Shown here piece after piece: positions 3,277 to 20,619 of a stretch of 64,000 nucleotides of DNA. The position numbers and the translations under genes are program-made. The number at the start of each line of letters is the position of its first letter. Positions within the stretch are counted from its first letter, which is position 1. The DNA comes from Clostridia bacterium (GTDB taxonomy: Bacteria; Bacillota; Clostridia; Oscillospirales; CAG-272). The notes below the pieces were generated by a model. That model was given only the letters and a program-made list of their open reading frames with translations. It was not told the DNA's origin and did not search any database. The stretch is from NCBI GenBank assembly GCA_017453285.1, contig JAFTKL010000008.1:14434-78433 (forward strand), written 5' to 3'.

Positions 3277-3295
3277 CTTTTCTCCTTTGCTTCAA

Positions 3296-7077: not shown

Positions 7078-7103
7078 TCACTTTTTTGCAATTGACCTGC
7101 TAT
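7066..7103 (-). terminator. Intrinsic terminator after BH6
   Basis: A 13-bp stem pairs atagcaagtcaat (7066-7078) with attgacctgctat (7091-7103), with one mismatch. It is flanked by A and T runs. Confidence 0.6.
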
Positions 7104-7119
7104 TTTTTAGTTTAATACC

Positions 7120-8133
7120 TTAATTTCTGTGGACCACGTGGCCTACGAGGTAATCCTTATAGGTCTCGTCGTCGCAGTTCTCGGGGGTAAAGATCGGGTT
7201 CTCTACGATTCCGAGTCCGCCGCTCTCGCTGACCTTGAGGAACGCGCGGTTAGCGCAGTCGCCGCGAAGTGCGATATTTGCGTTGCAGATGCTTGCGGCA
7301 AACTTGCCCTCTTCGCACTCAAATCCGACGTACTTAACTCCGCGGTTGGAGTACCACATACCAAAACAATGCTGGAATATGGGAGTTGCTCCGCCCTTGA
7401 ATCTGAAGCCGGTTGCCATTTCGTCGCTGTAGCAGTAGCTGTACCAGTTGTTGCCCCAGCTCTGATCGTCGAACGCGATACTCTTGGACTGATCGACCTC
7501 TCCGCCGTAAATAAAGAGCGGATGGATGTCGCGCAGCGAGTTGCCCGCACTCTTCATAAGAATACCTGTCTGAACCGACGCGATACGCATATTGCGCACT
7601 GTGTTATCGTAACCCTCGAGGAAAACTCCGACAGAATTTTCCTTGTTGTTACCTACGACGTTTACCATCTCGATATCCGAGTCGGACGAGCCGTTGTTTG
7701 CGCCGCGCTTTACGTGAATACCGATCTGTGTATTCTTGATAGAAACGTGAGAGATCAGAGTCTCGCGTCCCGAGTCTACCGAGATACCGTTTGCAACGCC
7801 GTTTCCGTCGATGATACCGCCCTTGAAGTGATAGTTACTTCCGGGGATGGTGATGCTGTTGAAGGGATAGATTCCGCCCATACGGACGAGTGCCTCGGGG
7901 CTGTCCCAGCCGTCTGCCGCCTTGATGATAGCAAAGCAGGAAAGCTCGAGAGATACTGCGATCCTCGGGTCTGCGGGGGTGCAGATCGGCTTTGCGAGCA
8001 CGTATTCACCGTCGGGGAAATAGATAGTCTTGTGGGGGTTGTCGTTGATTATCTGCTGAAGCGCGTCCGAAACATCCTTGCCGGTGTTAGCTTCGATATA
8101 GTCTGTAACTACTACGTAATTTTTGTTTTCCAT
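7120..8133 (-). CDS. BH6: leaderless short beta-helix paralog. Subfamily D.
   Basis: The start was moved to MENKNYVVVTDYIEANTGKDVSDALQQIINDNPHKTIYFPDGEYVLAKPICTP, with the RBS GAAAGGA 8 nt upstream. The longer track ORF would overlap the BH7 stop. Confidence 0.85.
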   Translation of the reverse strand: MENKNYVVVTDYIEANTGKDVSDALQQIINDNPHKTIYFPDGEYVLAKPICTPADPRIAVSLELSCFAIIKAADGWDSPEALVRMGGIYPFNSITIPGSNYHFKGGIIDGNGVANGISVDSGRETLISHVSIKNTQIGIHVKRGANNGSSDSDIEMVNVVGNNKENSVGVFLEGYDNTVRNMRIASVQTGILMKSAGNSLRDIHPLFIYGGEVDQSKSIAFDDQSWGNNWYSYCYSDEMATGFRFKGGATPIFQHCFGMWYSNRGVKYVGFECEEGKFAASICNANIALRGDCANRAFLKVSESGGLGIVENPIFTPENCDDETYKDYLVGHVVHRN

Positions 8134-8159
8134 AATATTTTCCTTTCTATTGAGAAATA

Positions 8160-9179
8160 TCAGCCTCTCCAATCGGGCATAAGGTAATCCTCGTGCGTTT
8201 TATCCGTCATATTGTCAACGCGCGATATCGGGAGATATATTATTCCCTTTCCGCCTGCTTCTCCGACTACCAAGAACGCCTTATTCGTAGCGCTGTCCTT
8301 GCATCTTACGTAGGAATTGCGAATAACGGAATTAAATTGACCGGAGCTCTCGTATCCGTGCTGTTTTCCGCCTCTGTCGGTGTACCAATAGCAATAGCAA
8401 TCGCTGTATGTGTTTATCGAATTTCCCTGCATATAAAATCCCGTAGCGAACTGATCGCTGTAGCAATTATTATACCAATTGATCGAGTTAACACAGTCAA
8501 GGAAGCCTATACTGTTCGCATATACCTCAGGATCGGCAAGCTCGCCGTCAAATATATACAGCGGATGCAGATTTTTCATTATCTGCGCCGAGCTATTCTG
8601 TATCTTAACTCCTATCTGGACTCCCGCGATACGCATATTGGTAAAGGAATTGTCACTTCCCTCAATAAGCATGCCAATAGAGCCTGCCTTACAGTTACCG
8701 ACGATATTCACGTTGAGTATATCAGCATCCGAGGAGTTTCCATTAGCACCTTTTTTGATATGCAGACCAATCGAGGTATGCTTTATTGAAGTGCCCTCTA
8801 TGCGAGTCTCACGTCCGCTCTCGATAGCAATACCCTGAGCCACGCCGTTTCCGTCAATGATACCGCCGCAAACCCTGTAGTTACTGCCGTTTTTCATTAT
8901 GGTATTGAAGGGCTCTGCCGCACCGAGTCTTATCATAGCCTCTTCGCTGTCCCATCCGTCTGCTGCCTTGACGGTGGCAAAATCCGAAAGCATAAGCGAG
9001 ACCGCGTTTGCAGGATTTGCAGGTGTGCAGATCGGCTTTGCGATAATATACTCACCGTCGGGGAAATATATAGTCCTATGAGGATTGTCGGTGATGATCT
9101 GCTGAAGAGCGTCCGAGACGTCTTTACCGCTATTCGCCTCGATATAGTCTGTAACTACTACGTATCCCTGGTTATTCAT
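8160..9179 (-). CDS. BH7: leaderless short beta-helix paralog. Subfamily D.
   Basis: It begins MNNQGYVVVTDYIEANSGKDVSDALQQIITDNPHRTIYFPDGEYIIAKPICTP. The core shows GGIIDGNGVAQGIAIESGRETRIEG, SSDADILNVNIVGN and GSDNSFTNMRIA. Confidence 0.88.
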   Translation of the reverse strand: MNNQGYVVVTDYIEANSGKDVSDALQQIITDNPHRTIYFPDGEYIIAKPICTPANPANAVSLMLSDFATVKAADGWDSEEAMIRLGAAEPFNTIMKNGSNYRVCGGIIDGNGVAQGIAIESGRETRIEGTSIKHTSIGLHIKKGANGNSSDADILNVNIVGNCKAGSIGMLIEGSDNSFTNMRIAGVQIGVKIQNSSAQIMKNLHPLYIFDGELADPEVYANSIGFLDCVNSINWYNNCYSDQFATGFYMQGNSINTYSDCYCYWYTDRGGKQHGYESSGQFNSVIRNSYVRCKDSATNKAFLVVGEAGGKGIIYLPISRVDNMTDKTHEDYLMPDWRG

Positions 9180-9192
9180 AGCTTACCTCTTC

Positions 9193-10218
9193 TCAAAGAT
9201 TTGTCATATCCTTGTCTACGACGTACTTCTTGTAAGTATGGTCAGTGAACTGCTCGGGCAATACCAGCGGATAGCTGATAGTTCCCTGTCCGCCCTCCTG
9301 AGTTTCGGTCAGATATGCCTTGAACTCGCACTCGTGGCGGTCGAAGACGTTGCAGCTACGGAGCACAGAGTTGAATCTGCCGTCTGCGTGGAATCCGACA
9401 GCCTTGCCTCCTCTGCCCGTGTACCAATAGCAGATGCAATCGGTATAGATCTGGCGCGCGCCGTCTTTCATACGGAAGCCGACTGCGAACTGATCGCTGT
9501 AGCAGCAGTTATATATGCTGTGGAACCAGGTATCGTCCCAGAACGCGCAGCTTGCCTTGAATACCTCGTCCTTCTCGAGATCGCCTCTGAAGGTATAGAG
9601 AGGATGGATATTCTTCATGAGCTGAGAAGATGCAAGTATCTTAAATCCGAACTGAACGCCCGCGATACGCATATTGGTAAAGCTGTTGTCCGAGCCCTCG
9701 ATGAGCACGCCGACCGAGCCTTCCTTGCAGTTGCCCACGATATTTACGTTCTGCACGTCAGCATCCGAGGAGTTCGAGTTTGCGCCGTGCTTGATGTGAA
9801 TTCCGACGAAGGTATTCTTGATCGACACCTTCTCGATAAGAGTCTCGCGTCCCGAGTCGATAGAAATTCCCTTTGCAACTCCGCTTCCGTCGATGATACC
9901 GCCGAAGATGCCGTAGTTGCTTCCGTTTATTCTGATATTGTTGAAGGGCTCAGCCGCGCCGAGACGAACCATAGCCTCGTCGCTGTCCCATCCGTCTGCC
10001 GCCTTGAGAGTCGCGAACTTGGAAAGCTCGAGATTTACCGCGTTAGCTCCGTTTGCAGAAGTGCAGATCGGCTTAGAAAGGATATACTCTCCATCTGGGA
10101 AATATATCGTTCTGTGGGGATTTTCGTCAATTATCTTCTGTATTGCATCCGATACATCCTTGCCGGTGTTAGCCTCGACGTAGTCGGTTACAACTACGTA
10201 GCCTCTGTTTTCGATCAT
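9193..10218 (-). CDS. BH8: leaderless short beta-helix paralog. Subfamily D.
   Basis: It begins MIENRGYVVVTDYVEANTGKDVSDAIQKIIDENPHRTIYFPDGEYILSKPICTS. The RBS is AAAGGAGAGAGG. A 13-nt gap separates it from BH7. Confidence 0.88.
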   Translation of the reverse strand: MIENRGYVVVTDYVEANTGKDVSDAIQKIIDENPHRTIYFPDGEYILSKPICTSANGANAVNLELSKFATLKAADGWDSDEAMVRLGAAEPFNNIRINGSNYGIFGGIIDGSGVAKGISIDSGRETLIEKVSIKNTFVGIHIKHGANSNSSDADVQNVNIVGNCKEGSVGVLIEGSDNSFTNMRIAGVQFGFKILASSQLMKNIHPLYTFRGDLEKDEVFKASCAFWDDTWFHSIYNCCYSDQFAVGFRMKDGARQIYTDCICYWYTGRGGKAVGFHADGRFNSVLRSCNVFDRHECEFKAYLTETQEGGQGTISYPLVLPEQFTDHTYKKYVVDKDMTNL

Positions 10219-10236
10219 AGCCTCTCTCCTTTACTT

Positions 10237-11253
10237 TTATATTACTCTGCCTACGAGATACTGCTTATAGGTCTCGTCGGTCACTCTCTCTGTGATGGGA
10301 TTTTCGATAAATCCGTGTCCGCCCTCTTCTGCAACCGTGATATACGCGTTGTTATCGTTGCTGTTGCGGTTGAAGTGAACTCTGCAATCGCGGATGATCG
10401 AATTGAACTTTCCGTCTACCTTGAAGCCTCTCTCGAGTCCGTCAGCCTTGTACCAATAGCAGAAGCAGTCAGCATATGTCAGTCTTGCGCCGTCTTTCAT
10501 ACGGAAACCTGTCGAGAACTGATCGCTGTAGCAGTTGTTGTACCAGACCTCGTGATTTGTGTCGTCCCAGAATGCACAGCTCTCTGCGTAGCGACCTGCA
10601 AGACCTGCGTCGTAGGTGTAGAGCGGATGGAGATTCTTGAGGAACTGCGAGGGAGCGAGTATCTTGAAACCGATCTCGATGTGAGCGATACGCATATTCG
10701 TAAAGGTGTTGTCGCAACCCTCGATCAGCACGCCGATAGACTCGGGCTGACCGTTACCTACGATATTTACGTTCATAATATCGGCATCCGAGGAGTTGGA
10801 ATTTGCTCCGTGCTTGATGTGGATACCTATCTGTGTATTTTTAATAGATACCTCGCGAATGAGAGTCTCTCTGCCGCTGTCGACCGACACGCCGTTAGCA
10901 ACGCCGCTTCCGTCGATGATACCGCCGATAATACCGTAGTTACTTCCGTTTACGGTTATGGTATTAAAGGGCTCTGCCGCGCCCAGACGCACGATAGCCT
11001 CCTTCTCGGTCCAATCCTTCGATGCCTTGAGAGTGGCGAACTTGGAAAGCTCGAGCGATACCGCGTTTACGGGGTTCGCCGAGGTACAGATCGGCTTCGA
11101 GAGGATATATTCGCCGTCGGGAAAATATATCGTTCTGTGCGGATTTTCATTGATGATCTTCTGAAGCTCGTCCGAGACGTCCTTGCCGGTGTTAGCCTCA
11201 ACGTAGTCTGTGACCACCACGTATCCGAATGCATTTGCATTGATATCTTTCAT
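10237..11253 (-). CDS. BH9: leaderless short beta-helix paralog. Subfamily D; first gene of the BH9-BH6 operon.
   Basis: The start was moved to MKDINANAFGYVVVTDYVEANTGKDVSDELQKIINENPHRTIYFPDGEYILSKPICTS, with the RBS AAAGGAGGT upstream. Confidence 0.85.
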   Translation of the reverse strand: MKDINANAFGYVVVTDYVEANTGKDVSDELQKIINENPHRTIYFPDGEYILSKPICTSANPVNAVSLELSKFATLKASKDWTEKEAIVRLGAAEPFNTITVNGSNYGIIGGIIDGSGVANGVSVDSGRETLIREVSIKNTQIGIHIKHGANSNSSDADIMNVNIVGNGQPESIGVLIEGCDNTFTNMRIAHIEIGFKILAPSQFLKNLHPLYTYDAGLAGRYAESCAFWDDTNHEVWYNNCYSDQFSTGFRMKDGARLTYADCFCYWYKADGLERGFKVDGKFNSIIRDCRVHFNRNSNDNNAYITVAEEGGHGFIENPITERVTDETYKQYLVGRVI

Positions 11254-11294
11254 TTTTTTACCTCCTTTGGTGGCAATTGCCACTTATTGAGTTC

Positions 11295-11323
11295 ATTATA
11301 ACACACAAAAAAAAGCAAGTCAA
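11295..11323 (-). promoter_or_regulatory. Sigma-A promoter for BH9-BH8-BH7-BH6. It overlaps the BH10 terminator.
   Basis: On the minus strand: TTGACT (11323-11318), 17-nt spacer, TATAAT (11300-11295). Confidence 0.65.
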
Positions 11324-11347
11324 TTCCTTTTGAGAAATTGACTTGCT
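11314..11347 (-). terminator. Intrinsic terminator after BH10
   Basis: A perfect 12-bp stem pairs agcaagtcaatt (11314-11325) with aattgacttgct (11336-11347). A T8 run follows on the minus strand. Confidence 0.7.
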
Positions 11348-11368
11348 AAATTTTTGATAGATTTTTTA

Positions 11369-12754
11369 TCAGCCGCCCCAGACTACCTTGCCGACGAGGT
11401 AATCCTTATAGGTGTCGTCATCGCACGCACCTACGGGGAATGCGGGATATTCAACGATGCCGTTGCCGCCCTCTTCACCGACGATCATAAATCTGCCGTC
11501 GGTCTGCGTCTCAAGGTCAACTCGGTAGTTCTTGAGGACAGAGTTGAACTTTCCGTCGGATGCAAAACCGTACTGCTTCTGTCCCTCTTCTTTTTTGTAC
11601 CAATAAGCGTAGCAGTTGTTATACACCGACATAGTGTGACCGCTGGTACGGAATCCGATAGCGAAGTTGTCGGGATAGCAGATATCGTAGGTGTTGCCCT
11701 CGCTCGTATCCCAGAAGCCTATACTGTCGCTGTAGTCGTAGTTGCTTGTGTAGATGAAGAGCATATGGAGATTGCGGAATATATTGTTCTTTCCGTTAGC
11801 CTTGGTAGCTACCTGGAAGCTTGCTACTCTCATATTGGTAAAGGTATTTCCGTCGCTGTCAACGAGAACTCCGACAGAGTCGGGAAGATTGCAGCCGACG
11901 ATGTTTACCGTCTCAATATCAGCGTAGCTCGAGGGGCTCTCGTCGTTGAGCGCGATGTGAAGTCCCTGCGTAACGAACTTGATCGATACGTATCTCACCG
12001 AGGTCTCAAGTCCGCCTGCGACCTCAACACCTCTTGCCTTATTAGAGCCGTCAATGCAACCGCCCTCCATGTAGTAGTTGCTTCCTACCTCGTCGACCGT
12101 AAATGTCTTGTCCTTAGCGCCGAGCTGGATCATATATCCGTTAGCATCATCCCAATCCGAAGCCGCCTTGATAATAGCAAAGGTCGAAAGTCTGAGTGAA
12201 ACTGCCTTGGCGGGATCGCTCGAGGTGATAAGAGGCTTGGAGATCAAATATTCTCCGTCGGGGAAATAGATAGTGGTATTGGGGTTCTCGTCGATGATCT
12301 TCTGAAGCTCTGCCGAAACGTCCTTGCGGGCATTTATTCTTATGTAGTCGGTAACTACTACGTAGCCCTTGGCTTTTGCGGTCTCTGCGTCAAGCTCTTC
12401 CTCGGGTTCTTCCTTTGAGGTTGTCTTTTTCTCGAGCATAGAGTCAGTAATGATGTCTCCCGCCTTAACGTCGACAAGGAGCTTTCTGCCGATAGCATCG
12501 GTCGCTTTGCTGAGATATCCTTCGGGTGCACTCGCCGCATCGACCTCTACCGTCTCAAGAGACACAATGCCAAAGGATGAACCTGCGGCAACATCAGTCT
12601 TTGCCTTAACGACTCTTACAAGAAGAGTGCTCTCCTGCTCGGATGGCTGTTCCTCCCCTCCGCCGTTGCAAGCACAGAGCGCAAGCATAACTACCGCAAG
12701 TACTGTGCACACGACAGTTCTGAATAATTTATTTATCGAAAATCTGTTTTTCAT
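11369..12754 (-). CDS. BH10: SAF-like/beta-helix lipoprotein paralog. Subfamily C.
   Basis: The N-terminus is MKNRFSINKLFRTVVCTVLAVVMLALCACNGGGEE (lipobox-like). The SAF-like stretch is LLVRVVKAKTDVAAGSSFG...GRKLLVDVKAGDIITDSML. An acidic linker follows, then GYVVVTDYIRINARKDVSAELQKIIDENPNTTIYFPDGEYLISKPL. Confidence 0.85.
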   Translation of the reverse strand: MKNRFSINKLFRTVVCTVLAVVMLALCACNGGGEEQPSEQESTLLVRVVKAKTDVAAGSSFGIVSLETVEVDAASAPEGYLSKATDAIGRKLLVDVKAGDIITDSMLEKKTTSKEEPEEELDAETAKAKGYVVVTDYIRINARKDVSAELQKIIDENPNTTIYFPDGEYLISKPLITSSDPAKAVSLRLSTFAIIKAASDWDDANGYMIQLGAKDKTFTVDEVGSNYYMEGGCIDGSNKARGVEVAGGLETSVRYVSIKFVTQGLHIALNDESPSSYADIETVNIVGCNLPDSVGVLVDSDGNTFTNMRVASFQVATKANGKNNIFRNLHMLFIYTSNYDYSDSIGFWDTSEGNTYDICYPDNFAIGFRTSGHTMSVYNNCYAYWYKKEEGQKQYGFASDGKFNSVLKNYRVDLETQTDGRFMIVGEEGGNGIVEYPAFPVGACDDDTYKDYLVGKVVWGG

Positions 12755-12772
12755 ATCTTCACCTCTTTACAA

Positions 12773-14131
12773 TCAACTGTTCCAGATTACATTTCCTACA
12801 AGATGGTTCACATAGCTGGTATTGTGCACCTTGCTCTTATCGAATATCGGATATTGAATAACTCCCTTTCCGCCTTCAGCACCGAGGTCAAGGAACATAC
12901 AATTCGCGTCATCCCCAAACTCCGCTCTGAAGTTGGAAACTATCGAGCTAAGACGTCCGTCGGTCGCGATAGCGGTCTGTGATGTCGCCTCGGGAGACGT
13001 CCAGCTTGCAGTGCAGTCGTTCATCATATCAAGCGCTCCGCCTCTGATTCTGAAGCCCACACGGAAGCCCTCGGCGTGAAATCCGTCCATCCAATTGCTT
13101 CCATTGGAATCAAGAAATCCGATACTGTCATTATAATCCCAGCTATCTCTGTGCTCGTAAACTGCGTGAACGTTGTGCATAAGGTTGCCTGCTTTTGTCA
13201 TCTGCATTCCGATCTCAAAGCCGCTGATGCGGATATCGGTCAGCGTGTTGTCAAGTCCGTCAACGTGAACGCCGATCGAACCGGGGAGATAGCAGCCCTC
13301 GATGTCTATAGCCTCGAAGTCGCAGTCGTTAGAGCCGTATGCCTGATTGTAAGCGATCTTGAGGCCCTGAGTTACGTTCTTGATCGAGATCTGACGGACC
13401 GAGGTCTCGCGTCCGCCCTCGAGAATGATTCCCTTTGCCTTGCGGTTACCGTCGATAATGCCGCCGTACATATAGTAGTTACTGCCGGTCTGGCTGATGG
13501 TGAAGGTCTCGTCGATAGCACCGAGCTGGATCATATGCTCGGCTCCGCCTCTCCAGCGGTCAGATGCCTTGATGACCGCGAAGCTCGACAGATGCAGAGA
13601 GACCGCCTTCTGAGGATTACTCGAGGTCTTAATTGGCTTTTCTATCGTATAAACTCCGTCGGGAAAGAAGATAGTCTTTCTCGGGTTCTTGTCGATGATC
13701 TCCTGGATCTTGTCGGTCAGGTTCTCGCCCGTGTTCGCGTCAAGATAATCGGTAACGACCACAAAACCAAGCTTTTTTGCAAGCGGAATAGTTATATTCG
13801 AGGTATCGACCTCCTTTTTCTCGGCAAGCATAGACTCTCCGATAACGTCGCCCGCCTTAATGTCAACGAGAAGCGTGCGTCCGACTATTTCACTCGTCTT
13901 GATAAGATAGTCATCGGGAGCGAGAGTTCTTTCGACCTCAACTACCTCAACGTCCTTTATTCCAAGGGCCTTTCCCGCCACCGCATCGACCTTCGTGCGA
14001 AGGGCCTTTACGAGCAACTTGGGTGCCTCTGTCTCTACCGCTTCTCCGCCGCCGTTACACGAGCAGGCGAGAAACACGGTCAGAACGAGAAGCACAAGGG
14101 CGAGCGCCTTGATAACCGTTCTTTTTTTCAT
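12773..14131 (-). CDS. BH11: SAF-like/beta-helix lipoprotein paralog. Subfamily C.
   Basis: The N-terminus is MKKRTVIKALALVLLVLTVFLACSCNGGGEA. The SAF-like stretch is LLVKALRTKVDAVAGKALG..GRTLLVDIKAGDVIGESML. The core begins GFVVVTDYLDANTGENLTDKIQEIIDKNPRKTIFFPDGVYTIEKPI. Its stop is 18 nt before the BH10 start. Confidence 0.85.
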   Translation of the reverse strand: MKKRTVIKALALVLLVLTVFLACSCNGGGEAVETEAPKLLVKALRTKVDAVAGKALGIKDVEVVEVERTLAPDDYLIKTSEIVGRTLLVDIKAGDVIGESMLAEKKEVDTSNITIPLAKKLGFVVVTDYLDANTGENLTDKIQEIIDKNPRKTIFFPDGVYTIEKPIKTSSNPQKAVSLHLSSFAVIKASDRWRGGAEHMIQLGAIDETFTISQTGSNYYMYGGIIDGNRKAKGIILEGGRETSVRQISIKNVTQGLKIAYNQAYGSNDCDFEAIDIEGCYLPGSIGVHVDGLDNTLTDIRISGFEIGMQMTKAGNLMHNVHAVYEHRDSWDYNDSIGFLDSNGSNWMDGFHAEGFRVGFRIRGGALDMMNDCTASWTSPEATSQTAIATDGRLSSIVSNFRAEFGDDANCMFLDLGAEGGKGVIQYPIFDKSKVHNTSYVNHLVGNVIWNS

Positions 14132-14192
14132 AGCTCTTTCCTTTCGAAAATATTTCTACCAAAAAGCAGATGCAAGATCTGCATACATAATC

Positions 14193-14221
14193 ATTTTACC
14201 ATAAAAAAACTGCCGTGTCAA
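14193..14221 (-). promoter_or_regulatory. Sigma-A promoter for BH11-BH10, inside DR1
   Basis: On the minus strand: TTGACA (14221-14216), 17-nt spacer, TGgTAAAAT (TAAAAT at 14198-14193). A small leader hairpin, gcagat/atctgc plus T5, lies at 14166-14182. Confidence 0.6.
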
Positions 14222-14291
14222 TACAAATCTTCTAAGCGACTTTGAGCCGAATTTTGCTCTTTTTTAACAATTCTTTGTTTTATAGAAAATT

Positions 14292-14318
14292 CCGCCTGCC
14301 GAGATTTTCGGCAGGCGG
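14292..14318 (-). terminator. Intrinsic terminator (DR1 copy) just after the lipoprotein gene
   Basis: A perfect 9-bp stem pairs ccgcctgcc with ggcaggcgg around a 9-nt loop. AATTTTCTAT follows on the minus strand. Confidence 0.6.
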
Positions 14319-14323
14319 TGGGG

Positions 14324-15220
14324 TTATTTAACGTTTATGTGCAGAACAGGAGGAGGAAAATCACTTGCGTTTTCTCCGTCAGGCAAAGTATAAACTCTTA
14401 TGTAATAATCGCCCTTAGAGTCAATTACAAGTCTTTTTTCCGCGATTTTCCATACTCCTTTAATACTTTTTTCCAAGGTGTCAAGAGCATTCTCTAATTC
14501 CTTTTTAGAGATATCCTCCTTTGCAGTATCAAACACTCCCATAAATCTTGCATTTATAGCAATAATCTTTCCTGCCTTATTAACGCTTATCTCAATATAA
14601 TCGTCAGTAAGAATTCCAAAAACATCCTCTTTTCTTTCGAAAACAATAAAATATCCTGTCTTAGTTCCGCTATCACTGAAAATCGCCTTGCTTTGAACAT
14701 AATTCTCCGCAATTTCTTTTCCATAAAGAGAATTAAGTGTTTCCTCCGCGATGTGTATTGCCTCGTCCTCGGTACAATTCCCCTCTGCCGTTCTATCTTC
14801 TCTATTGGTGATTGAGAAAAATACAATTTTATCGGTATTTTCTAAAAGCTCTACCGTCGCATCTTGACCTCTGTACTTGTTATATTTACTATACTGTCCC
14901 TTATATCGTTCAATATTTGAAAGATCATTTTTATATGATTTTACAAGACCAACAGAATATGAAAAATCAGAAATTTGAACCTCACGTGTTTTTGCCGCAT
15001 CATTGGGATCAATCTCTTCCTCATTTAAAGGAGAAAAGTCTATTTCTCCTTCGCTCTTTAGTTCTACATTATTGGGAAGGCTAATATCAAGTGCCCCACT
15101 TTGTATCCCACTTTTCAGATCAAAGTCTGAATATATCGTATATTTTATTCTTTCCCCTCCACACGAGCACAAGGATAAAACAAGCGTTATAAAGCATATC
15201 ATTGACATAATTTGTTTCAT
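14324..15220 (-). CDS. Hypothetical lipoprotein in the AT-rich insert
   Basis: The N-terminus is MKQIMSMICFITLVLSLCSCGGE (signal peptide plus lipobox). The 298-aa ORF is visibly AT-richer than its flanks. I recognise no family. Confidence 0.7.
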   Translation of the reverse strand: MKQIMSMICFITLVLSLCSCGGERIKYTIYSDFDLKSGIQSGALDISLPNNVELKSEGEIDFSPLNEEEIDPNDAAKTREVQISDFSYSVGLVKSYKNDLSNIERYKGQYSKYNKYRGQDATVELLENTDKIVFFSITNREDRTAEGNCTEDEAIHIAEETLNSLYGKEIAENYVQSKAIFSDSGTKTGYFIVFERKEDVFGILTDDYIEISVNKAGKIIAINARFMGVFDTAKEDISKKELENALDTLEKSIKGVWKIAEKRLVIDSKGDYYIRVYTLPDGENASDFPPPVLHINVK

Positions 15221-15232
15221 AGCAATTCTCCT

Positions 15233-15783
15233 TTACTGCAAATTTAAGTATTGAAACCCTTCGCCGCGATAATCCAACGGTAACTCAGATCTATATTCCA
15301 ATTGTGAACTCCCTTTATCACCAACTATAACAAAGACACCTCCAACCTTATCCGTTGCTTCCTCAATCGACTCGTTGATATTATATCCCTTATTGATGTT
15401 GTCTAAAAAATATTCAAGCCAATCATTTGTATTCGGTATACGTACCTGTTCAGTAAAGCCTAAAACAAAGTGAGCACCTTTGTTAAAAGTTTCATCTAAC
15501 AAACAAGAAATACCAGAAACAGAACTATAATTTTCATATGCCCAACCAAAGTAACCTAAATCATCCATGGTTTCACATAATAATCAACATTTTCGGTAGT
15601 ATCAAATGGCACATGTAAACCATATTCATAATGCATGTAATTGAAAGCAAATATCTCCGCATATCTTTTTTCAACCGCCATAAATGACCAATAGCATGCC
15701 GCTGTCTCTGTTGGGCTAAGATAAACATTACCACTCTCATCTTGCGCAACATATTTTGTACCTTTCGAGAATATTTCTGCCAA
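15233..15783 (-). pseudogene. 5'-truncated and frameshifted gene remnant (two overlapping ORF fragments)
   Basis: The 75-aa fragment (15556-15783) and the 111-aa fragment (15233-15568) overlap by 13 nt at CCATGGATGATTTAG in frames one nt apart. The upstream reading frame runs into DR2 with no ATG or RBS; only a TTG is available there. The RBS inherited from the repeat points at a different, junk-looking frame. Confidence 0.5.
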
Positions 15784-15813
15784 AAAGCAGATGCAAGAGC
15801 TGCATACATAACT

Positions 15814-15842
15814 ATTTTACCATAAAAAAACGATTATGTCAA
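15814..15842 (-). promoter_or_regulatory. Sigma-A promoter (DR2 copy) reading into the AT-rich insert
   Basis: On the minus strand: TTGACA (15842-15837), 17-nt spacer, TGgTAAAAT (15819-15814). Confidence 0.55.
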
Positions 15843-15912
15843 CACAAACCTTCTAAGCAACCTTGAGGCGAATTTTTCTCTTTTTTAACAATTCTTTGTT
15901 TTATAGAAAATT

Positions 15913-15939
15913 CCGCCTGCCGAGATTTTCGGCAGGCGG
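15913..15939 (-). terminator. Intrinsic terminator after the P-type ATPase (DR2 copy)
   Basis: The same ccgcctgcc/ggcaggcgg hairpin, 28 nt past the ATPase stop. Confidence 0.65.
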
Positions 15940-15966
15940 CGTGTAAATATAAGGTTTGGAGAAAGC

Positions 15967-17817
15967 TTATCTCAATCCTCGCATTGAATTCATGACTGCT
16001 ATAACAAGCACTCCGACGTCGGCAAAGATCGCGAGATCCATTCCCGCCACGCCGATCGCTACGAGCGCAAGGCAAGCGAGCTTTACGCCGATCGAGAACA
16101 CGATGTTCTGCTTTGCTATACGCATACATTTGCGAGAGAGCTTTATAGCATCCGCGACCTTGGAGATATCGTCGTCCATTATGACCACGTCAGCCGCGTC
16201 GGTCGCCGCATCCGAGCCGATACCGCCCATCGCGATACCGACGTCGGCTCTTGCGAGCACGGGCGCGTCGTTGATGCCGTCGCCGACAAAGGCGACCTTG
16301 CCGCCGCTCTCCATCAAGCTTTCAAGCTCTCCGACCTTGTCCTCGGGCAGAAGCGAGGCGCGCACGTCGCAGATGCCGACCTCACGCGCGACCGCCCGTC
16401 CGACGTCCTCGCGGTCGCCCGTGAGCATTACCGTCCGCACGCCGAGCTTTCCGAGCGCGCTGACTGCCGCCGCCGCATTCTCCTTCGGCGCGTCCGCGAG
16501 AGTTATATATCCCGCAAAGACACCGCTGACCGACACGCAAAGCAGAGTCGCGCCGTCGCTCTCTTTTGCTTGGCATCCAACAAGAGCGGGAGTTCCCACT
16601 CTTACCTCGATGCCGTCGACAGTAGCAACTACTCCCCTGCCGCGCTCCTCGCGTATCTCGCTCACTCTCGCGCGGTCGATCTTGCCGCCATAGGCAGAAA
16701 CGATGCTTTTAGCTATCGGGTGAGAGGATGCGTGCTCGGCGTGAGCCGCGTATTCAAGCAAAAGCTCGCGGCTGATCCCGACCGCCTCTACCTCTCTTAG
16801 CACGAATCTGCCGCAGGTCAGCGTACCGGTCTTGTCGGTTGCGACACACTTGAGTGATGCAAGCGTCTCAAGACAGTTCGAGCCCTTGACGAGTATTCCG
16901 CGCTTGCTCGCCCCACCAAGACTTGCGAAAAATCCCATCGGGATGCTGATGACGAGCGCACAAGGACAGCTTATAACGAGAAAGCTGAGTGCGCGGTATA
17001 TCCACTCGCCCACATTCGCGTCTCTGCCTGTAGCAAAAAGCACGAGCGGAGGCAAAAGCGCGAGCAGAAGCGCCGCCGCGCAGACCGCGGGGGTGTATAC
17101 TTTAGCAAATTTTGATATAAACTTCTCGGATTTCGACTTGCGCGAGCTTGCGTTCTCGACAAGGTCGAGAATCCTCGCGACCGCCGACTCGCCGTAGACC
17201 TTTGTCGTGCGGATGCGGAGCGGAGAGGAAAGATTGACCGACGCGCTGAGTATCTCGTCTCCGACATATACGTCGCTCGGCATACTCTCGCCCGTGAGCG
17301 CGGAGCTGTCGATTGCCGACTCGCCGCTCTCTATCACGCCGTCAATGGCAACTCGCTCGCCCGGGTTGACGACTATTATCTCGCCTATCTCTACTTCATC
17401 GGGAGAGAGCTCGTAAAGCTCACCGCCGCGCTCGACACGTGCAAAATCCGGGCGGATATCCATAAGTGCGGAGATGCTTTTGCGGCTCTTTCCGAGCGCG
17501 ATGCTCTGAAAAAGCTCGCCTATCTGGTAAAATAGCATTACCGCCACCGCCTCGGTGTAGTCTCCCCTTCCCCATATCGCGATGGCGAGCGCACCGACCG
17601 TGGCTATCGCCATAAGAAAGTTCTCGTCGAGAAGCTGACCGTGTATCAGTCCGCGCGCCGCCGAGAGCAGAACATCGTAACCTATCACGAGATAGGGCAC
17701 GAGCCAGAGGGCAAGCTCGATGTACCACTTAAGCTCGGGGGCGAGGATAAGCAGGGCGAGCATAAAGACGCCGCTGATGATTATCCGCAGAAGCCGTTTT
17801 TTCTGTTTTCTTGTCAT
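15967..17817 (-). CDS. Heavy-metal translocating P1B-type ATPase, probably Cd/Zn type
   Basis: It shows the CPC motif (SCPCALVIS), DKTGTLT, GDGINDAP and MLTGD. There is no fused N-terminal metal-binding domain; that domain is encoded by the preceding small gene. Confidence 0.92.
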   Translation of the reverse strand: MTRKQKKRLLRIIISGVFMLALLILAPELKWYIELALWLVPYLVIGYDVLLSAARGLIHGQLLDENFLMAIATVGALAIAIWGRGDYTEAVAVMLFYQIGELFQSIALGKSRKSISALMDIRPDFARVERGGELYELSPDEVEIGEIIVVNPGERVAIDGVIESGESAIDSSALTGESMPSDVYVGDEILSASVNLSSPLRIRTTKVYGESAVARILDLVENASSRKSKSEKFISKFAKVYTPAVCAAALLLALLPPLVLFATGRDANVGEWIYRALSFLVISCPCALVISIPMGFFASLGGASKRGILVKGSNCLETLASLKCVATDKTGTLTCGRFVLREVEAVGISRELLLEYAAHAEHASSHPIAKSIVSAYGGKIDRARVSEIREERGRGVVATVDGIEVRVGTPALVGCQAKESDGATLLCVSVSGVFAGYITLADAPKENAAAAVSALGKLGVRTVMLTGDREDVGRAVAREVGICDVRASLLPEDKVGELESLMESGGKVAFVGDGINDAPVLARADVGIAMGGIGSDAATDAADVVIMDDDISKVADAIKLSRKCMRIAKQNIVFSIGVKLACLALVAIGVAGMDLAIFADVGVLVIAVMNSMRGLR

Positions 17818-17819
17818 AC

Positions 17820-18038
17820 TCAGAAATAGATAACGCAGTCGCGCTCGACCTTCTTTGCCGCCTTCTGCGCAGCCTTCATTACCTTCTGCTCGTCAGCACC
17901 GTCGCAAAAATCGACGGTGAGCTTGAGTGCCATAAAGTTCACGCTCGCGTCAAGCACACCCTCAAGCTTTTTGATGCACTCTTCGACCTTGAGCGCGCAG
18001 TTGGGGCAATCCACTTCAATTTTGTATACCTTTTTCAT
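17820..18038 (-). CDS. Stand-alone heavy-metal-associated (HMA) domain protein
   Basis: The 72-aa protein reads KIEVDCPNCALKVEECIKKLEGV, the CxxC pattern seen at the N-terminus of Firmicute CadA-type pumps. Its stop is 2 nt before the ATPase ATG. Confidence 0.8.
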   Translation of the reverse strand: MKKVYKIEVDCPNCALKVEECIKKLEGVLDASVNFMALKLTVDFCDGADEQKVMKAAQKAAKKVERDCVIYF

Positions 18039-18050
18039 ATCAATACCTCA

Positions 18051-18084
18051 CATTCAATTAAATGATTGTTTAATCGTTGAATTT
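18051..18084. promoter_or_regulatory. Candidate ArsR/CadC operator
   Basis: An imperfect inverted repeat, ATTCAATTAAA..TTTAATcgTTGAAT, lies between the -10 box and the HMA start codon. Confidence 0.4.
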
Positions 18085-18113
18085 ATTATACCACATCCCC
18101 CGCCCGATGTCAA
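18085..18113 (-). promoter_or_regulatory. Sigma-A promoter of the HMA-ATPase operon
   Basis: On the minus strand: TTGACA (18113-18108), 17-nt spacer, TGgTATAAT (18090-18085). Confidence 0.65.
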
Positions 18114-18174
18114 GGGTAAAAGGAGAAAAAGTTGAATAAACGCGCTGTTTTCTTTGACGCACACACATAAAAAA

Positions 18175-18335
18175 TATATCGAACCTGTAGGGACCGGCGT
18201 CCCCGACGGTCCTAAAACAAAAATATAGATATCTTTTATATCTGTTATCCTTGTTTTGATAATAGACAAATATGCAATTTGTAACCGATACGACATTGGA
18301 CCGCCGAGGACGTCGGTCCCTACAGGTTCGATATA
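18175..18335. mobile_element. 161-bp inverted-repeat element: a REP-doublet or MITE-like non-autonomous element
   Basis: The termini are tatatcgaacctgtagggaccggcgtccccgacggtcc (left) and ggaccgccgaggacgtcggtccctacaggttcgatata (right), about 38-bp imperfect inverted repeats. They enclose an 85-bp AT-rich core. Each end is GTAGGG plus a hairpin, with the GTAG ends facing outward. Confidence 0.75.
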
Positions 18336-18423
18336 GTTTTGTGTTTCGGCAGCAGACGGAAATTCGGCTCTCTACCAATTTTCAACTTTCCACTTTCAAT
18401 TTTCAATTTTTCTCTCTTATCCC

Positions 18424-18452
18424 TTGATATTTCACTTAAAATTTGATATAAT
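18424..18452 (+). promoter_or_regulatory. Sigma-A promoter of the ArsR-family regulator
   Basis: TTGATA (18424-18429), 17-nt spacer, TATAAT (18447-18452). The ATG is at 18483, after the RBS AAAGGAG. Confidence 0.6.
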
Positions 18453-18482
18453 ATATCCGATAACGTCAGAAAGGAGATAAAT

Positions 18483-18857
18483 ATGTCGATACATCTTCCG
18501 CACGACCACGGCAACGCCGAGCGCGAGGAGCTGCTCGCTTCTATGTGGAGCCGCGAGAGCTTCGAGACCGTCTCAAGCCTCTTCAAACAGCTCTCGGACA
18601 CAACACGCCTGCGCATTTTCTGGGTGCTCTGTCACTCCGAGGAGTGCGTTATAAATCTCGCCGCTATTATGAATATGAGCTCGCCCGCCGTGTCACATCA
18701 TCTCCGCCTTCTGAAAGAAGCAGGACTCGTCGTCACGCGCAGAGAGGAAAAAGAGGTCTACTACAAGGTCGCAGACACCGAAGAAGCCTCACTTTTGCAC
18801 TCTATGATCGAGCAGCTTGAGCATATAACCTGCCCCGATGAGAAAAAAAGCAACTAA
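18483..18857 (+). CDS. ArsR/SmtB-family metalloregulator (CadC-like)
   Basis: It shows the winged-HTH signature LSDTTRLRIFWVLCHSEECVINLAAIMNMSSPAVSHHLRLLKEAGLV. It is divergent from the ATPase operon. Confidence 0.88.
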   Translation: MSIHLPHDHGNAEREELLASMWSRESFETVSSLFKQLSDTTRLRIFWVLCHSEECVINLAAIMNMSSPAVSHHLRLLKEAGLVVTRREEKEVYYKVADTEEASLLHSMIEQLEHITCPDEKKSN

Positions 18858-18871
18858 TTTGCGAAAAGATC

Positions 18872-18900
18872 TTGATTTCACGCAAAGTTTATTATATAAT
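18872..18900 (+). promoter_or_regulatory. Sigma-A promoter of asnA
   Basis: TTGATT (18872-18877), 17-nt spacer, TATAAT (18895-18900). Confidence 0.6.
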
Positions 18901-18939
18901 TATATGGTTATTTCCGTTATTTGAAAGGACACTTTTACA

Positions 18940-19947
18940 ATGAACAAAACCTTCGTACCCGAGGGCTACCGTCCTCAGCTCGATGCCTACCAGACGCAGA
19001 GAGCGATCGAATACATCAAAAGAACTTTTCAGGCTGAGTTTTCCTCGGCCCTTCACCTAAAGAGAGTTACCGCTCCCCTATTCGTTGCCGAGAATTCCGG
19101 TCTTAACGACAACCTCTCGGGCAAGGAGCGCCCCGTATCCTTCGATATCCCCGCGATCGGTCTTGATGCGCAGGTCGTTCACTCGCTTGCAAAGTGGAAG
19201 AGACTCGCGCTCAAGAGATATAATTTCGGTGTCGGCGACGGACTTTATACCGATATGAACGCAATACGGCGCGACGAGTGGCTCGATAACGTGCATTCTA
19301 TATACGTTGACCAGTGGGACTGGGAAAAGATAATCACCCGCGAGACGAGAAATATGGATTATCTCAAGCTCATAGTCACCGCGATCGTTGAGGCTATCTG
19401 CAACACCAACGACCGCCTGCGCGTGCGCTTTCCTCAGCTCACGACCGAGCTTTGCCGCAAGGTCTCATTTATCACCACGCAGGAGCTTGAGGATCTCTAC
19501 CCCGACCTTTCGGGCAACGAGCGCGAGAACGCGTATCTGCGCGAGCACAAGACTGCGTTTATTATGCAGATCGGCGGTGCGCTCCGCTCAGGCAAGCCGC
19601 ACGACAACCGCGCGCCCGACTACGACGACTGGTCGCTCAACGGCGATATCTTCTTCTGGGACGACGTACTTGGAAGAGCGCTTGAGATCTCCTCAATGGG
19701 TATCCGCGTTGACGCACAGACGCTCGACCGCCAGCTCACGATAGCAGGCTGTGACGATCGCCGCGCGCTTCCCTTCCATCAGATGCTGCTCCACGACGAG
19801 CTTCCCCTCACCATCGGCGGCGGTATCGGTCAGTCGCGCCTTTGTATGCTTATGATGGGCTGCGCTCACATCGGTGAGGTACAGTCGAGCATCTGGGACA
19901 GCGAGACTATCCGCATCTGCGAGGAAAACGGTATACCGTTGCTTTGA
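18940..19947 (+). CDS. asnA: Aspartate-ammonia ligase (asparagine synthetase A)
   Basis: The 335-aa protein begins ..QTQRAIEYIKRTFQAEFSSALHLKRVTAPLFV and continues through ..SSMGIRVD, ending GGGIGQSRLCMLMMG. This is typical AsnA, a class-II aaRS-like fold. Confidence 0.9.
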   Translation: MNKTFVPEGYRPQLDAYQTQRAIEYIKRTFQAEFSSALHLKRVTAPLFVAENSGLNDNLSGKERPVSFDIPAIGLDAQVVHSLAKWKRLALKRYNFGVGDGLYTDMNAIRRDEWLDNVHSIYVDQWDWEKIITRETRNMDYLKLIVTAIVEAICNTNDRLRVRFPQLTTELCRKVSFITTQELEDLYPDLSGNERENAYLREHKTAFIMQIGGALRSGKPHDNRAPDYDDWSLNGDIFFWDDVLGRALEISSMGIRVDAQTLDRQLTIAGCDDRRALPFHQMLLHDELPLTIGGGIGQSRLCMLMMGCAHIGEVQSSIWDSETIRICEENGIPLL

Positions 19948-20103: not shown

Positions 20104-20619
20104 ATGAAAATGGATGAATTGAAAAACCGAAAAACTACTCGATTAAAGGGCGCTGATTATAATCGAAACCAGGTCGTTTTTTTGACGATATGCACCAAGG
20201 AACGACGCTGTATTCTCTCTCGAATTGTAGGGACCGGCGTCCTCGACGGTCCAAAAATCGAATTAACAAAATACGGACAAATTGCAGACAAATACATCAA
20301 ACAATTAAGTAATTTTTATGATGACTTTTCTGTCGAAAGCTATGTGATCATGCCAAATCACATTCATATTATGCTGTGGGTAAAAGGTGCCATAAATGGA
20401 CCGTCGGGGACGCCGGTCCCTACAAAACAAAATTCTATTCCGGCACGGTTCGTGTCAACGTTCAAGAGATTTTGCAATAAAGAATATGGGGAAAATATGT
20501 GGCAATACCGTTCTAACGATCACATCATCCGAAACCGCGAAGACTATGAAGAGCATTTGCGGTATATTTACGAAAATCCGCTACGTTGGTACTACGACGA
20601 ACTATATAAAGAAGAATAA
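20104..20619 (+). CDS. IS200-like Y1 HUH transposase-family protein (REP-associated tyrosine transposase, RAYT-like)
   Basis: The HUH motif is in YVIMPNHIHIML. A C-terminal tyrosine motif is in LRYIYENPLRW. The size is about 171 aa. No IS ends or a partner tnpB gene are present. It carries two REP-like hairpins in frame (see the two repeat features below). Confidence 0.75.
   Translation: MKMDELKNRKTTRLKGADYNRNQVVFLTICTKERRCILSRIVGTGVLDGPKIELTKYGQIADKYIKQLSNFYDDFSVESYVIMPNHIHIMLWVKGAINGPSGTPVPTKQNSIPARFVSTFKRFCNKEYGENMWQYRSNDHIIRNREDYEEHLRYIYENPLRWYYDELYKEE
20227..20252 (+). repeat. GTAGGG-hairpin (REP-like) inside the RAYT-like CDS
   Basis: The sequence is gtagggaccggcgtcctcgacggtcc, which encodes VGTGVLDGP. 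Confidence 0.85.
20398..20423 (-). repeat. GTAGGG-hairpin (REP-like) inside the RAYT-like CDS, inverted
   Basis: The reverse complement is gtagggaccggcgtccccgacggtcc. This is identical 26/26 to the intergenic copy at 18187-18212. It encodes GPSGTPVPT. Confidence 0.85.

Follow-up and report, generated by a model that had tools for sequence, protein, structure and literature searches.

An AT-rich insert between two copies of a predicted terminator-promoter-leader module in a gut Clostridia bacterium, with filled, empty and donor-type loci

How does foreign DNA come to lie directly upstream of a large operon when no mobility gene accompanies it, and how does a complete regulatory module come to stand on each side of the newcomer? 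These questions are raised by a locus in a 64-kb stretch of DNA (64,000 nucleotides, here called the window) from an uncultured gut Clostridia bacterium, in which a 1.6-kb insertion lies between a metal-pump (ATPase) gene and a large operon, the BH11 array. Every gene in the region from the ATPase gene to BH11 is carried on the minus strand. The features of the locus are listed in Table 1.

The sequence-only reading of the window had reported two 181-bp copies of a module, aligned without indels, with about 17 mismatches and about 62 identical nt, and realignment gave an exact match: copies A and B are each 181 nt long and align without gaps, with mismatches at 17/181 positions. In minus-strand orientation the copies differ at position 2 of the module, positions 3-64 (62 nt, made up of a hairpin, here called T, and 35 nt) are identical, and the remaining 16 differences are all within positions 65-181. 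An automated repeat search returned a 208-nt pair with 87% identity and a spacing of 1621; this extended repeat was rejected, as the matches beyond 181 nt are chance matches. The TATG beyond copy A derives from K-Y-V codons of the donor gene described below. Neither the hairpin nor the promoter core was found again within the 64-kb window (0 further occurrences expected by chance).

That each copy holds a terminator hairpin, a TTGACA-17-TAAAAT site and a small leader hairpin with a T-run was confirmed in both copies. T has an 11-bp stem in each copy, with a folding energy of about -24 kcal/mol and a z of about -7, and it has the make-up of an intrinsic terminator, i.e., a GC-rich stem followed by the tail AAUUUUCUAU; a consensus scan flagged both copies as predicted terminators. 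An Rfam scan of 12000-19000 gave no match at T or the module, and sub-threshold matches to miRNA precursors were set aside as belonging to an unrelated long hairpin, not the module. A DNA pattern of the hairpin plus spacer had 0 matches in JGI metagenomes. Both copies contain a predicted sigma-70-type promoter, and TTGACA-17-TAAAAT is kept in all of the single-copy alleles considered below. The leader hairpin scored as terminator-like in copy B and not in copy A, because of a stem-breaking A-to-C change in the latter. A role of the leader hairpin as an attenuator was considered and dropped, its folding being no better than that of shuffled sequence.

Table 1. Coordinates of the features of the locus in the window.
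Feature	Position	Strand	Remarks
Heavy-metal P-type ATPase gene, upstream neighbour of the target	15967..17817	(-)	Pfam E1-E2_ATPase (2.4e-44) and Hydrolase
Module copy A (proximal)	15761..15941	(-)	hairpin, 35-nt AT-rich spacer, promoter, leader, RBS
Hairpin T, copy A (CCGCCTGCCGA-AAATC-TCGGCAGGCGG)	15913..15939	(-)	11-bp stem, -24.2 kcal/mol, z -6.8
Promoter-like site, copy A	15814..15842	(-)	TTGACA-17-TAAAAT with TG motif; 11/12 consensus
Left junction, microhomology AAGG	15761..15764	(-)	window aligned with L004 and L009
X' pseudogene	15233..15760	(-)	remnant of 487-aa secreted Big_2 / GHG...C protein X
Putative lipoprotein gene, passenger	14324..15220	(-)	intact, 298 aa; weak DUF4901/YcdB-like match
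Module copy B (distal), apparently near-ancestral, 5' of BH11	14140..14320	(-)	
Hairpin T, copy B; right junction	14292..14318	(-)	donor lipoprotein terminator meets target
Promoter-like site, copy B	14193..14221	(-)	11/12 consensus with TG
Leader mini-hairpin and T-run (GCAGATCTTGCATCTGC TTTTT), copy B	14166..14182	(-)	intact in B, weakened in A
BH11	12773..14131	(-)	gene 1 in 11-gene array of SAF / pectate-lyase-like proteins

The 1,440 bp between the copies had been described as richer in AT than its surroundings, which holds: the GC content is 0.354, versus 0.582 in the ATPase gene and 0.514 in BH11. The insert contains only X' and the lipoprotein gene. The latter, as had been read, is an intact ORF, and its product has 84% and 55% amino-acid identity to the cassette homologues at L004 and L006, respectively. 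Since insertion its dN/dS has been 0.85, from 13 changes, with no signal of purifying selection. X' had been described as a remnant whose reading frame runs into the repeat without a start codon and is split by a frameshift at 15556-15568. The startless frame, which enters copy A, and the frameshift stood, and the site did not, the 1-nt deletion being at 15575/15574. Two further lesions distinguish X' from full-length X: a 5' truncation, such that the remnant begins at about residue 220 of X, and a 246-nt in-frame deletion at 15504/15503, with which the GHG...C region was lost. The in-frame deletion had been missed in the sequence-only reading. In a related strain (L009) X' has an additional 46-nt deletion. 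The conserved GHG...C motif is the sole feature that hints, weakly, at X being protease-like.

Alignment scans with the lipoprotein found no relatives among JGI metagenome contigs and viral contigs, and tblastn found no match to it in plasmids and phages; tblastn with X against plasmids, the only set searched, gave one irrelevant match to an Ig domain. PADLOC gave no match. PDB sequence searches yielded nothing informative, X giving only weak matches in the Big_2 region, and AlphaFold models of the X C-terminal domain (pLDDT 37) and the lipoprotein (44) were discarded, their quality being too poor for use.

Comparison with other genomes revealed three states of the locus or its parts. The layout that had been proposed as ancestral, ATPase stop, terminator-promoter, BH11, was found as an empty site (ATPase stop, 27 nt, one module, BH11 start) in four related lineages (L012, L020/L021, L101), and the BH11 orthologues at these sites are 77-94% identical to the window's BH11. 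The same ATPase gene is 5' of the single module at L012, L021 and L101; an exact look-up with the ATPase protein gave no match, and a 72-aa HMA protein, used as the query in its place, did give matches. The filled structure was found in four independent assemblies (L001, L002, L003 and L009) and is limited to a tight clade with at least 95.6% DNA identity. The sequence-only reading had named the same two-copy structure in all relatives, with an intact, in-frame upstream gene, as an outcome that would count against capture; single-copy sites were found in four lineages. The donor locus with a full-length version of the truncated gene, which had been looked forward to, was found in several genomic contexts. 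At L004/L005 an intact X, the lipoprotein gene and the hairpin are 5' of a MATE gene, with 90% identity to window positions 15503-14271; at L006/L007 the cassette has a trypsin-like gene on one side and the same hairpin on the other, and the empty state of that site is seen at L038; L008 has a further full-length X. In three hosts whose GC content is 0.51-0.58, that of the cassette is about 0.36, and the L008 genome (0.365) is the sole one to match it. With empty sites, filled sites and donor-type loci all located, the earlier proposal that a foreign fragment was captured with duplication of the module is supported.

Two rival explanations are affected by these comparisons. Mis-joining at the repeat, or a chimeric contig, is a general risk of metagenome assembly, and this general risk is all that speaks for an artefact, an outcome that had been flagged beforehand. 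The same structure, junctions and frameshift are present in the four independent assemblies, whose samples differ. At 99.98% identity, L003 extends across both copies, the 4.4%-diverged strain L009 has the same junction as the window, and the longest exact repeat between A and B is 62 nt, with 17 differing positions in the module. The chance of an artefact is practically negligible. It might also be supposed that the filled state is ancestral and that single-module loci arose by deletion between the direct repeats; the 62-nt identity could support a RecA-mediated deletion, and the single-copy module of L021 mixes A-type with B-type states. Against this, empty sites are found in four divergent lineages and filled sites in one tight clade, the spacers and hairpin loops of the empty sites (GCAA, TCCTT) match neither A nor B, and the insert is foreign in composition and has a truncated gene with its junction inside an RBS. 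This order of events, already disfavoured, is very improbable.

The junctions bear on the route. At the left junction the AAGG is common to the module RBS (GAAAGG) and donor gene X (GCAAGGT), and illegitimate junctions are typically marked by 3-10 bp of microhomology (PMC3240628). The right junction is within T, where the similarity to L004 continues through the hairpin and about 20 nt more, to window position 14271. What donor-type loci have in common with empty sites there is limited to the 11-bp arms of the stem and a few tail bases, and the loops differ, being AAATCC in donor-type loci and GCAA or TCCTT at empty sites; both window copies have AAATC. On the target side the AAGG junction is 179 nt downstream of the hairpin junction, so that the T-to-AAGG interval is found on both sides of the insert; relative to the empty sites, no recipient base was lost and 179 nt were duplicated. 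Among window genes near the insert, none had a Pfam hit to a transposase or recombinase family, no recombinase, transposase or integrase family was among the precomputed Pfam hits on the L003 and L010 gene calls that cover the flanks, and the insert ends have no inverted repeats besides the two hairpins. The earlier argument against classical transposition is upheld by the absence of a transposase and of terminal inverted repeats and by the nature of the junctions, and that for a recombination- or replication-type capture by microhomology at the left and short homology at the right.

We regard the structure as a derived insertion variant in which a cassette fragment was captured by a template switch or an unequal exchange, with duplication of the module, and put the probability of this reading at roughly 0.6. 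The ancestor would have had the ATPase stop, 27 nt, T, the AT-rich spacer, a sigma-70-type promoter, the leader and RBS, and BH11. The incoming DNA would have been part of an AT-rich cassette that moves horizontally and has two genes, one for the secreted Big_2/GHG...C protein X and one for the lipoprotein, with a terminator at its end whose 11-bp stem is that of T. One junction would have formed by short homology in or beside the hairpin, and the other where the BH11 RBS and a site inside gene X have the 4-nt microhomology AAGG in common. The likeliest route would be either a template switch during replication or an unequal exchange between sister strands with the foreign DNA as a bridge, and the trigger may have been a fork that stalled, or a break, at the hairpin. 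BH11 would have retained the untouched promoter copy B, and the lipoprotein gene would have come to lie between the second copy, A, and its own terminator. With this placement the insertion would be non-polar. It is plausible that the copy A promoter drives the lipoprotein gene. Afterwards X' decayed further, copy A drifted, and the hairpin-plus-spacer block probably underwent gene conversion. It tells against the favoured route that the hairpin offers no more than 11 + 11 nt of homology, with unlike loops in between, which is short for RecA-dependent recombination, and that classical homology-facilitated illegitimate recombination (HFIR), to which we return below, gives an insertion with a deletion, not a duplication (PMC3240628).

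The divergence of the copies is uneven, with 0/62 differences in the identical block versus 16/117 in the remainder (Fisher p = 0.0014). The promoter-leader segment of copy B differs at only 3 positions from the single-copy allele of L101, and, with this near-ancestral allele as the reference, 13 of the 16 promoter-leader differences are carried by copy A; four of copy A's differences are common to copy A of L009 and three are window-specific. Copy B thus appears to be near-ancestral and copy A to be the faster-diverging copy, the redundant copy A having drifted about 4 times faster than the operon-serving copy B. The identical block suggests that hairpin and spacer were probably homogenised between the copies by gene conversion. 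The loops also tell against the favoured route. Under a simple one-step model the loop of A should be of the recipient type, and both loops are near the donor type, so that either an extra step of gene conversion or an unsampled recipient allele is needed. The block between -35 and -10 is TAATC in A versus CGGCA in B. Both circulate as alleles of single-copy strains, and the copies could therefore come from different alleles.

The last observation fits a Campbell-type single crossover, in which a fragment from a conspecific donor, extending from inside X to the RBS and recircularised at AAGG by end-joining, would have integrated through one homologous crossover in the module of a recipient with an empty site. 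The donor would have had an intact cassette directly 5' of an orthologous module, and A would be donor-derived and B the recipient's, as their different circulating spacer-block alleles (TAATC/AG versus CGGCA/GA) might indicate. A single crossover classically leaves an insert between direct repeats of the homologous segment, and the exchange could have taken place within the 62-nt identical block. In E. coli, true HFIR was much rarer than duplications of 109-950 bp produced by recircularised incoming DNA (PMC3240628). However, among the retrieved loci, a small sampling, none has an intact cassette adjoining the module, and the A-lineage states at module positions 80G, 83T, 163C and 173C are absent from all single-copy alleles that cover those positions. 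Further, the block in copy A of L009 is TGGCA, which is B-like, so that the window's TAATC looks like a later patch, and the one loop common to both hairpins is left unexplained. On balance we consider a single crossover unlikely.

Capture by template switch or unequal exchange gives T a part at one of the junctions. Because the same 11-bp stem ends the cassette wherever it was found, following the lipoprotein gene in every other context, T is not purely a target sequence and probably supplied the homology for one junction. In three genomes, at three unrelated loci, the cassette is directly followed by the same 11-bp stem, and T is already present at both sites for which the empty counterpart is known. 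A stem-only scan found 6 loci in one related MAG, RGIG9137. The stems at L050, L080 and L089 adjoin distant homologues of the lipoprotein domain (22-36% amino-acid identity), and L050 and L080 share T and a downstream MreB flank at 76% identity, with different upstream genes. These observations would fit a hairpin-directed exchange, in which T is a portable recombination site for an unknown recombinase, or a fragile fork-stalling palindrome, with cassettes that end in T being inserted or swapped again and again. In this group of uncultured Clostridia T might then, speculatively, be a portable anchor or hot spot for recombination of AT-rich DUF4901-like extracytoplasmic cassettes across species, without an element-encoded recombinase; the cassettes might include X-lipoprotein pairs and sigma/anti-sigma pairs, and the window event might be one with an unusually long target duplication. 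However, unrelated taxa, Pseudomonas and Streptomyces among them, have the same stem as an ordinary terminator, so that a convergent origin is possible, no recombinase family is among the Pfam hits near the insert or on the flank-covering loci, and the left junctions, at a handful of loci, are at no fixed position relative to T. A half-hairpin at the L006 left junction, with 14/22 matches, was too weak to use. An exchange directed by the hairpin is, in our judgement, distinctly improbable. However it is to be explained, the same hairpin does recur at the edges of related cassettes at several loci in related genomes.

Capture through short homology at the hairpin and microhomology at AAGG would be a well-documented and fairly ordinary illegitimate recombination event, and not a new kind of system. 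The locus is of interest as a natural case of the gain of a foreign gene without mobile-element machinery for which all three states, filled, empty and donor-type, are at hand. As the whole terminator-promoter-leader unit was duplicated, the newcomer gained a putative promoter and the resident 11-gene operon kept its own. Decay after capture is also seen, with the dead gene collecting deletions and the redundant promoter copy drifting. The locus thus offers a data point for models of illegitimate recombination and of regulatory rewiring after horizontal transfer.

Among known systems, transposons and IS elements likewise leave an insert between direct duplications of the target. The duplication is 179-181 nt here versus 2-14 nt for transposases, so that it is no fixed short target-site duplication; the insert has neither a transposase nor terminal inverted repeats, and one of its ends truncates a gene at a microhomology. 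Nor does the insert resemble an integron cassette: T pairs perfectly over 11 bp around a loop of 4-6 nt, a structure that is not attC-like, the Pfam hits of flank-covering loci include no integrase family, and Rfam has no match at T. HFIR during the uptake of foreign DNA is reportedly to be credited to de Vries and Wackernagel in 2002. The event resembles HFIR in that there is no mobility gene, one junction is by similarity, here the terminator stem, and the other is at a microhomology, here AAGG, whose 4 nt are within the 3-10 bp described (PMC3240628). It differs in that the HFIR anchor is normally >100 bp and the similar stretch here is about 26-47 nt, and in that HFIR normally deletes recipient DNA, whereas here no recipient base was lost and 179 nt were duplicated. 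Campbell-type integration, with its insert between direct repeats of 109-950 bp (PMC3240628), has the same geometry as the two collinear 181-nt copies with their period of 1621 nt. In that case the incoming molecule must carry the whole module, whereas copy A looks like a diverged B and not an imported allele, and the donor hairpins at L004/L005 and L006/L007, a small sampling, are followed by unrelated sequence (the MATE gene and another flank, respectively). Microhomology-mediated break-induced replication, or fork stalling and template switching, yields both insertions and duplications, with junctions at 2-5 nt of microhomology and switches that return to positions already copied (Hastings et al. 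2009, PMC2621351). Most descriptions of it concern copy-number variation in eukaryotes and switches inside one genome, whereas here one template would be foreign and the route is one that we infer; the strong hairpin at this locus is a plausible site for the stall with which such a switch would begin.

Alignment of the two module copies without gaps gave exactly 17 mismatched positions in 181 nt, where the sequence-only reading had counted about 17, and the identical end of about 62 nt reported there corresponds to 62 consecutive identical positions covering the terminator hairpin, T, and the spacer. The differences between copies A and B are clustered (0/62 versus 16/117; Fisher p = 0.0014). 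The parts that had been recognized in each copy, i.e., terminator hairpin, TTGACA-17-TAAAAT promoter, leader hairpin with T-run and a terminal RBS, that of BH11 in copy B, are present in both. The repeat proper starts with the first base of T, ends with AAGG and is 179 nt long; its period is 1621 nt. A 208-nt repeat pair was also considered and was rejected: the surplus flanking matches are due to chance, and the TATG that follows copy A belongs to donor coding sequence. The hairpin, promoter core and leader have no third copy within 64 kb, the chance expectation also being none. The insert had been described as AT-rich, and its GC content is 35.4%, compared with 58% in the ATPase gene and 51% in BH11. 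The minus strand is the coding strand for every gene in this region of the window.

Features of the ATPase-BH11 region in order of transcription, followed by the parts of the module
Feature	Window position	Strand	Remark
HMA metallochaperone gene	17820-18038	-	first in transcription order
P-type ATPase gene	15967-17817	-	downstream of HMA gene
Module copy A	15941-15761	-	between ATPase gene and X'
Gene remnant X'	15760-15233	-	between copy A and lipoprotein gene
Putative lipoprotein gene, 298 aa	15220-14324	-	between X' and copy B
Module copy B	14320-14140	-	between lipoprotein gene and BH11
BH11, SAF + pectate-lyase-like protein	14131-12773	-	downstream of copy B
Ten more BH11 paralogues	down to 283	-	beyond BH11
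Hairpin T, CCGCCTGCCGA-AAATC-TCGGCAGGCGG	in each module copy	-	-24 kcal/mol
AT-rich spacer, 35 nt	in each module copy	-	after hairpin T
Promoter-like TTGACA-17-TAAAAT + TG motif	in each module copy	-	sequence match
Small hairpin, then T-run	in each module copy	-	leader
GAAAGG	in each module copy	-	BH11 RBS in copy B

The 11 tandem minus-strand paralogues (283-14131) encode pectate-lyase-like beta-helix proteins; a SAF domain and lipoprotein-type signal peptide are also found in the first two of the 11, and gene count and order in the array differ across the related loci L003, L011, L012 and L091.

The possibility that the duplication is an assembly artefact was ruled out, the same structure being present at four other filled loci. 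L003 covers both copies, with 99.98% identity to the window across 4.39 kb; L001 is 99.6% identical, and L001 and L002 come from samples other than that of the window. L009, from a strain 4.4% diverged, has the left junction, frameshift and internal deletion of the window, its contig stopping within the distal hairpin. Several independent metagenome contigs (L001, L003, L009, L010, L013, L014 and L018) start or stop inside the ATPase gene, in a segment of 69% GC (16240-16490) that lies about 300-500 nt upstream of the module; poor coverage of high-GC DNA or branching between strains could be the cause.

Empty sites were sought among contigs with the exact 72-aa HMA protein and contigs with BH11 homologues. 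Four single-module loci were found, with the layout ATPase stop, 27 nt, one T-spacer-promoter-leader unit, BH11, which is the ancestral arrangement that had been proposed. The hairpin loop is GCAA in L012 and L020/L021, whose BH11 genes are 77% and 94% identical to that of the window, respectively, and TCCTT in L101 (BH11 87%). Further, a third allele, without hairpin and spacer, was found in L022-L024 and ten JGI contigs (L091-L100); here the ATPase frame runs into the promoter and has its stop inside the -35 box, TTGACA (L022:2215-2260, L091:2030-2060; also L023, L024 and L092-L100). The third-allele junction is at GCGAGG(T)TTG, a string that the L021 allele also has, upstream of its -35 box. 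The ATPase-BH11 intergenic site is a structural-variation hot spot. Because relatives carry single-module and hairpin-less alleles, the filled state is derived, and it is restricted to one tight clade.

The claim that the insert is a foreign fragment was supported by loci in which a full-length version of the truncated gene, X, lies beside the lipoprotein gene. Relatives of the lipoprotein are very few in a collection of 5.8 billion proteins. L004/L005 have an intact X gene and lipoprotein gene (84% aa identity), then the hairpin CCGCCTGCCGA-AACC-TCGGCAGGCGG, then a MATE gene. In L006/L007 the cassette consists of promoter, long leader, a gene for a 487-aa X protein (a signal peptide and Big_2, followed by a conserved GHG...C region) and the lipoprotein gene (55%), with a trypsin-like gene on one side and the hairpin with loop AAATCC on the other. 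The 320-nt promoter-plus-leader region upstream of this intact X gene (L006:3257-3576) contains GC-rich segments that look paired; a regulatory RNA or leader may lie here. A more distant X-lipoprotein pair is found in L008, whose own genome is 36.5% GC. The cassette is about 36% GC in each of three GC-richer hosts, and so is foreign in all three. The window and L004 are 90% identical over 15503-14271, with 92-98% identity for the first 700 nt of the lipoprotein gene, 84% for the 5' part of X' and about 70% for the last 200 nt of the lipoprotein gene; this variation by segment indicates that L004 is a mosaic relative of the donor rather than the actual donor. When L004 and L006 are compared, their lipoprotein genes are only 54-65% identical along most of the length but 94% identical at nucleotides 701-800, and the 3' untranslated stretch ahead of the hairpin is also in common (L004:1577-1773 versus L006:5752-5948); the cassette 3' end has thus recently passed between lineages.

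At the left junction, module sequence ...CGAAAGG|T meets donor gene sequence ...GCAAGG|T through a 4-nt microhomology, AAGG (15764-15761). X' starts at about residue 220 of 487. At the right junction, the sequence remains donor-like past the lipoprotein stop, across T and for about 20 nt more; beyond this it tracks the empty-site alleles. X' has the 1-nt frame change that had been noticed, not at 15556-15568 as then placed but as a deletion at 15575/15574. It also has a 246-nt in-frame deletion (15504/15503) which removes the conserved GHG...C region and whose edges in L004 carry the repeat TTTG(A/T)TAGATGA, and L009 lacks an additional 46 nt. X' is a pseudogene in decay. The junction also put a donor-internal ATG at the BH11-start distance from GAAAGG, opening a spurious, probably coincidental, 59-codon frame across X' (15752-15573); transcripts from promoter A may allow its translation.

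Changes in the module were polarized with L101, L021, L012, L022 and L091 as outgroups. Of the 16 promoter-leader differences, 13 fall on copy A; copy B departs from L101 at only three positions in the promoter-leader. Four copy A changes (module positions 80, 83, 163 and 173) are common to L009 copy A, and three (65, 99 and 143) are specific to the window, that at 143 weakening the leader hairpin; position 74 is polymorphic across alleles. The 5-nt spacer block reads TAATC in window copy A, CGGCA in copy B and TGGCA in L009 copy A; single-copy alleles include TAATC as well as CG(G/A)CA. The copy A promoter-leader of L009 is 7.7% different from that of the window, versus 1.1-1.8% for neighbouring segments, with L009 having the B-type state at most differing positions. 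We read this pattern as in-place duplication followed by relaxed constraint on copy A, with patches of recombination or gene conversion. Hairpin loops and spacers vary between strains, unlike the 62-nt A/B identity, for which conversion of one copy by the other would be the simplest explanation.

No terminator-like sequence separates promoter A from the lipoprotein gene, which has a good RBS; its expression from promoter A is plausible. Long-term dN/dS versus L004 is 0.28. Since insertion (window versus L009) there have been 3 synonymous and 10 non-synonymous changes, for a dN/dS of 0.85, which is the neutral expectation, and any function of the gene is putative.

A scan for the hairpin stem, with one genome per species, gave 66 loci. 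Because many are in unrelated phyla, the stem can have independent origins. Six are in one related MAG, RGIG9137 (L038, L072, L074, L080, L085 and L089). L038 corresponds to the cassette site of L006 in its empty state and already has the hairpin. L080 and L089 have sigma/anti-sigma pairs directly upstream of the hairpin, as does L050 from another species, and the extracytoplasmic domain of these anti-sigma proteins is a distant homologue of the lipoprotein (22-36% aa identity). Between L050 and L080, the hairpin plus downstream MreB flank is 76% identical, but the upstream genes differ. An identical terminator stem beside such diverged proteins is odd, and suggests, for this small sample of loci, that the hairpin marks or promotes cassette exchange; if it holds up, the recurrent hairpin could be a lead of greater interest. 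The sigma/anti-sigma pairs are of the ECF type, and in RGIG9137 the hairpin also follows two serpin-like paralogues and a trypsin-like gene. At 18170-18340 and 20225-20425 there are two MITE-like elements, whose terminal inverted repeats are 29-43 nt long (GTAGGGACCGGCGTCCnCGACGGTCC); one of the two is between the HMA and ArsR genes, and related copies are found in L010 and L074 (the latter in RGIG9137). Plant miRNA-precursor model matches at the element between HMA and ArsR were sub-threshold and due simply to its long hairpin.

The sequence-only reading had preferred recombination or slippage to transposition, and indeed the Pfam hits on genes near the insert include no transposase, and the insert has neither inverted repeats at its ends nor a short target duplication; nor did the lipoprotein gene have a homologue in the plasmids or phages searched. 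The junctions show 4 nt of similarity at one and about 11-27 nt at the other, and the 179-nt duplication follows from the inverted order of the junctions on the target. Two known routes lead to such geometry. One is a template switch or unequal exchange in which, as in MMBIR/FoSTeS, the point of leaving is downstream of that of re-entry. The other is a single crossover of a recircularised molecule carrying the repeated segment, which has produced 109-950-bp duplications in experiments (PMC3240628). We favour the template switch or unequal exchange, the single crossover being the less likely alternative, because no donor with the cassette adjoining the module was seen among the retrieved loci and because copy A resembles a diverged copy of B. 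The microhomology at the left junction also fits classical HFIR, but the HFIR outcome, deletion (PMC3240628), does not. In sum, the repeat structure is confirmed, and the inference of the sequence-only reading is supported and refined: the locus is a clear natural case in which illegitimate, short-homology recombination captured foreign DNA and the entire regulatory module was duplicated, a new example of an already known kind of event.
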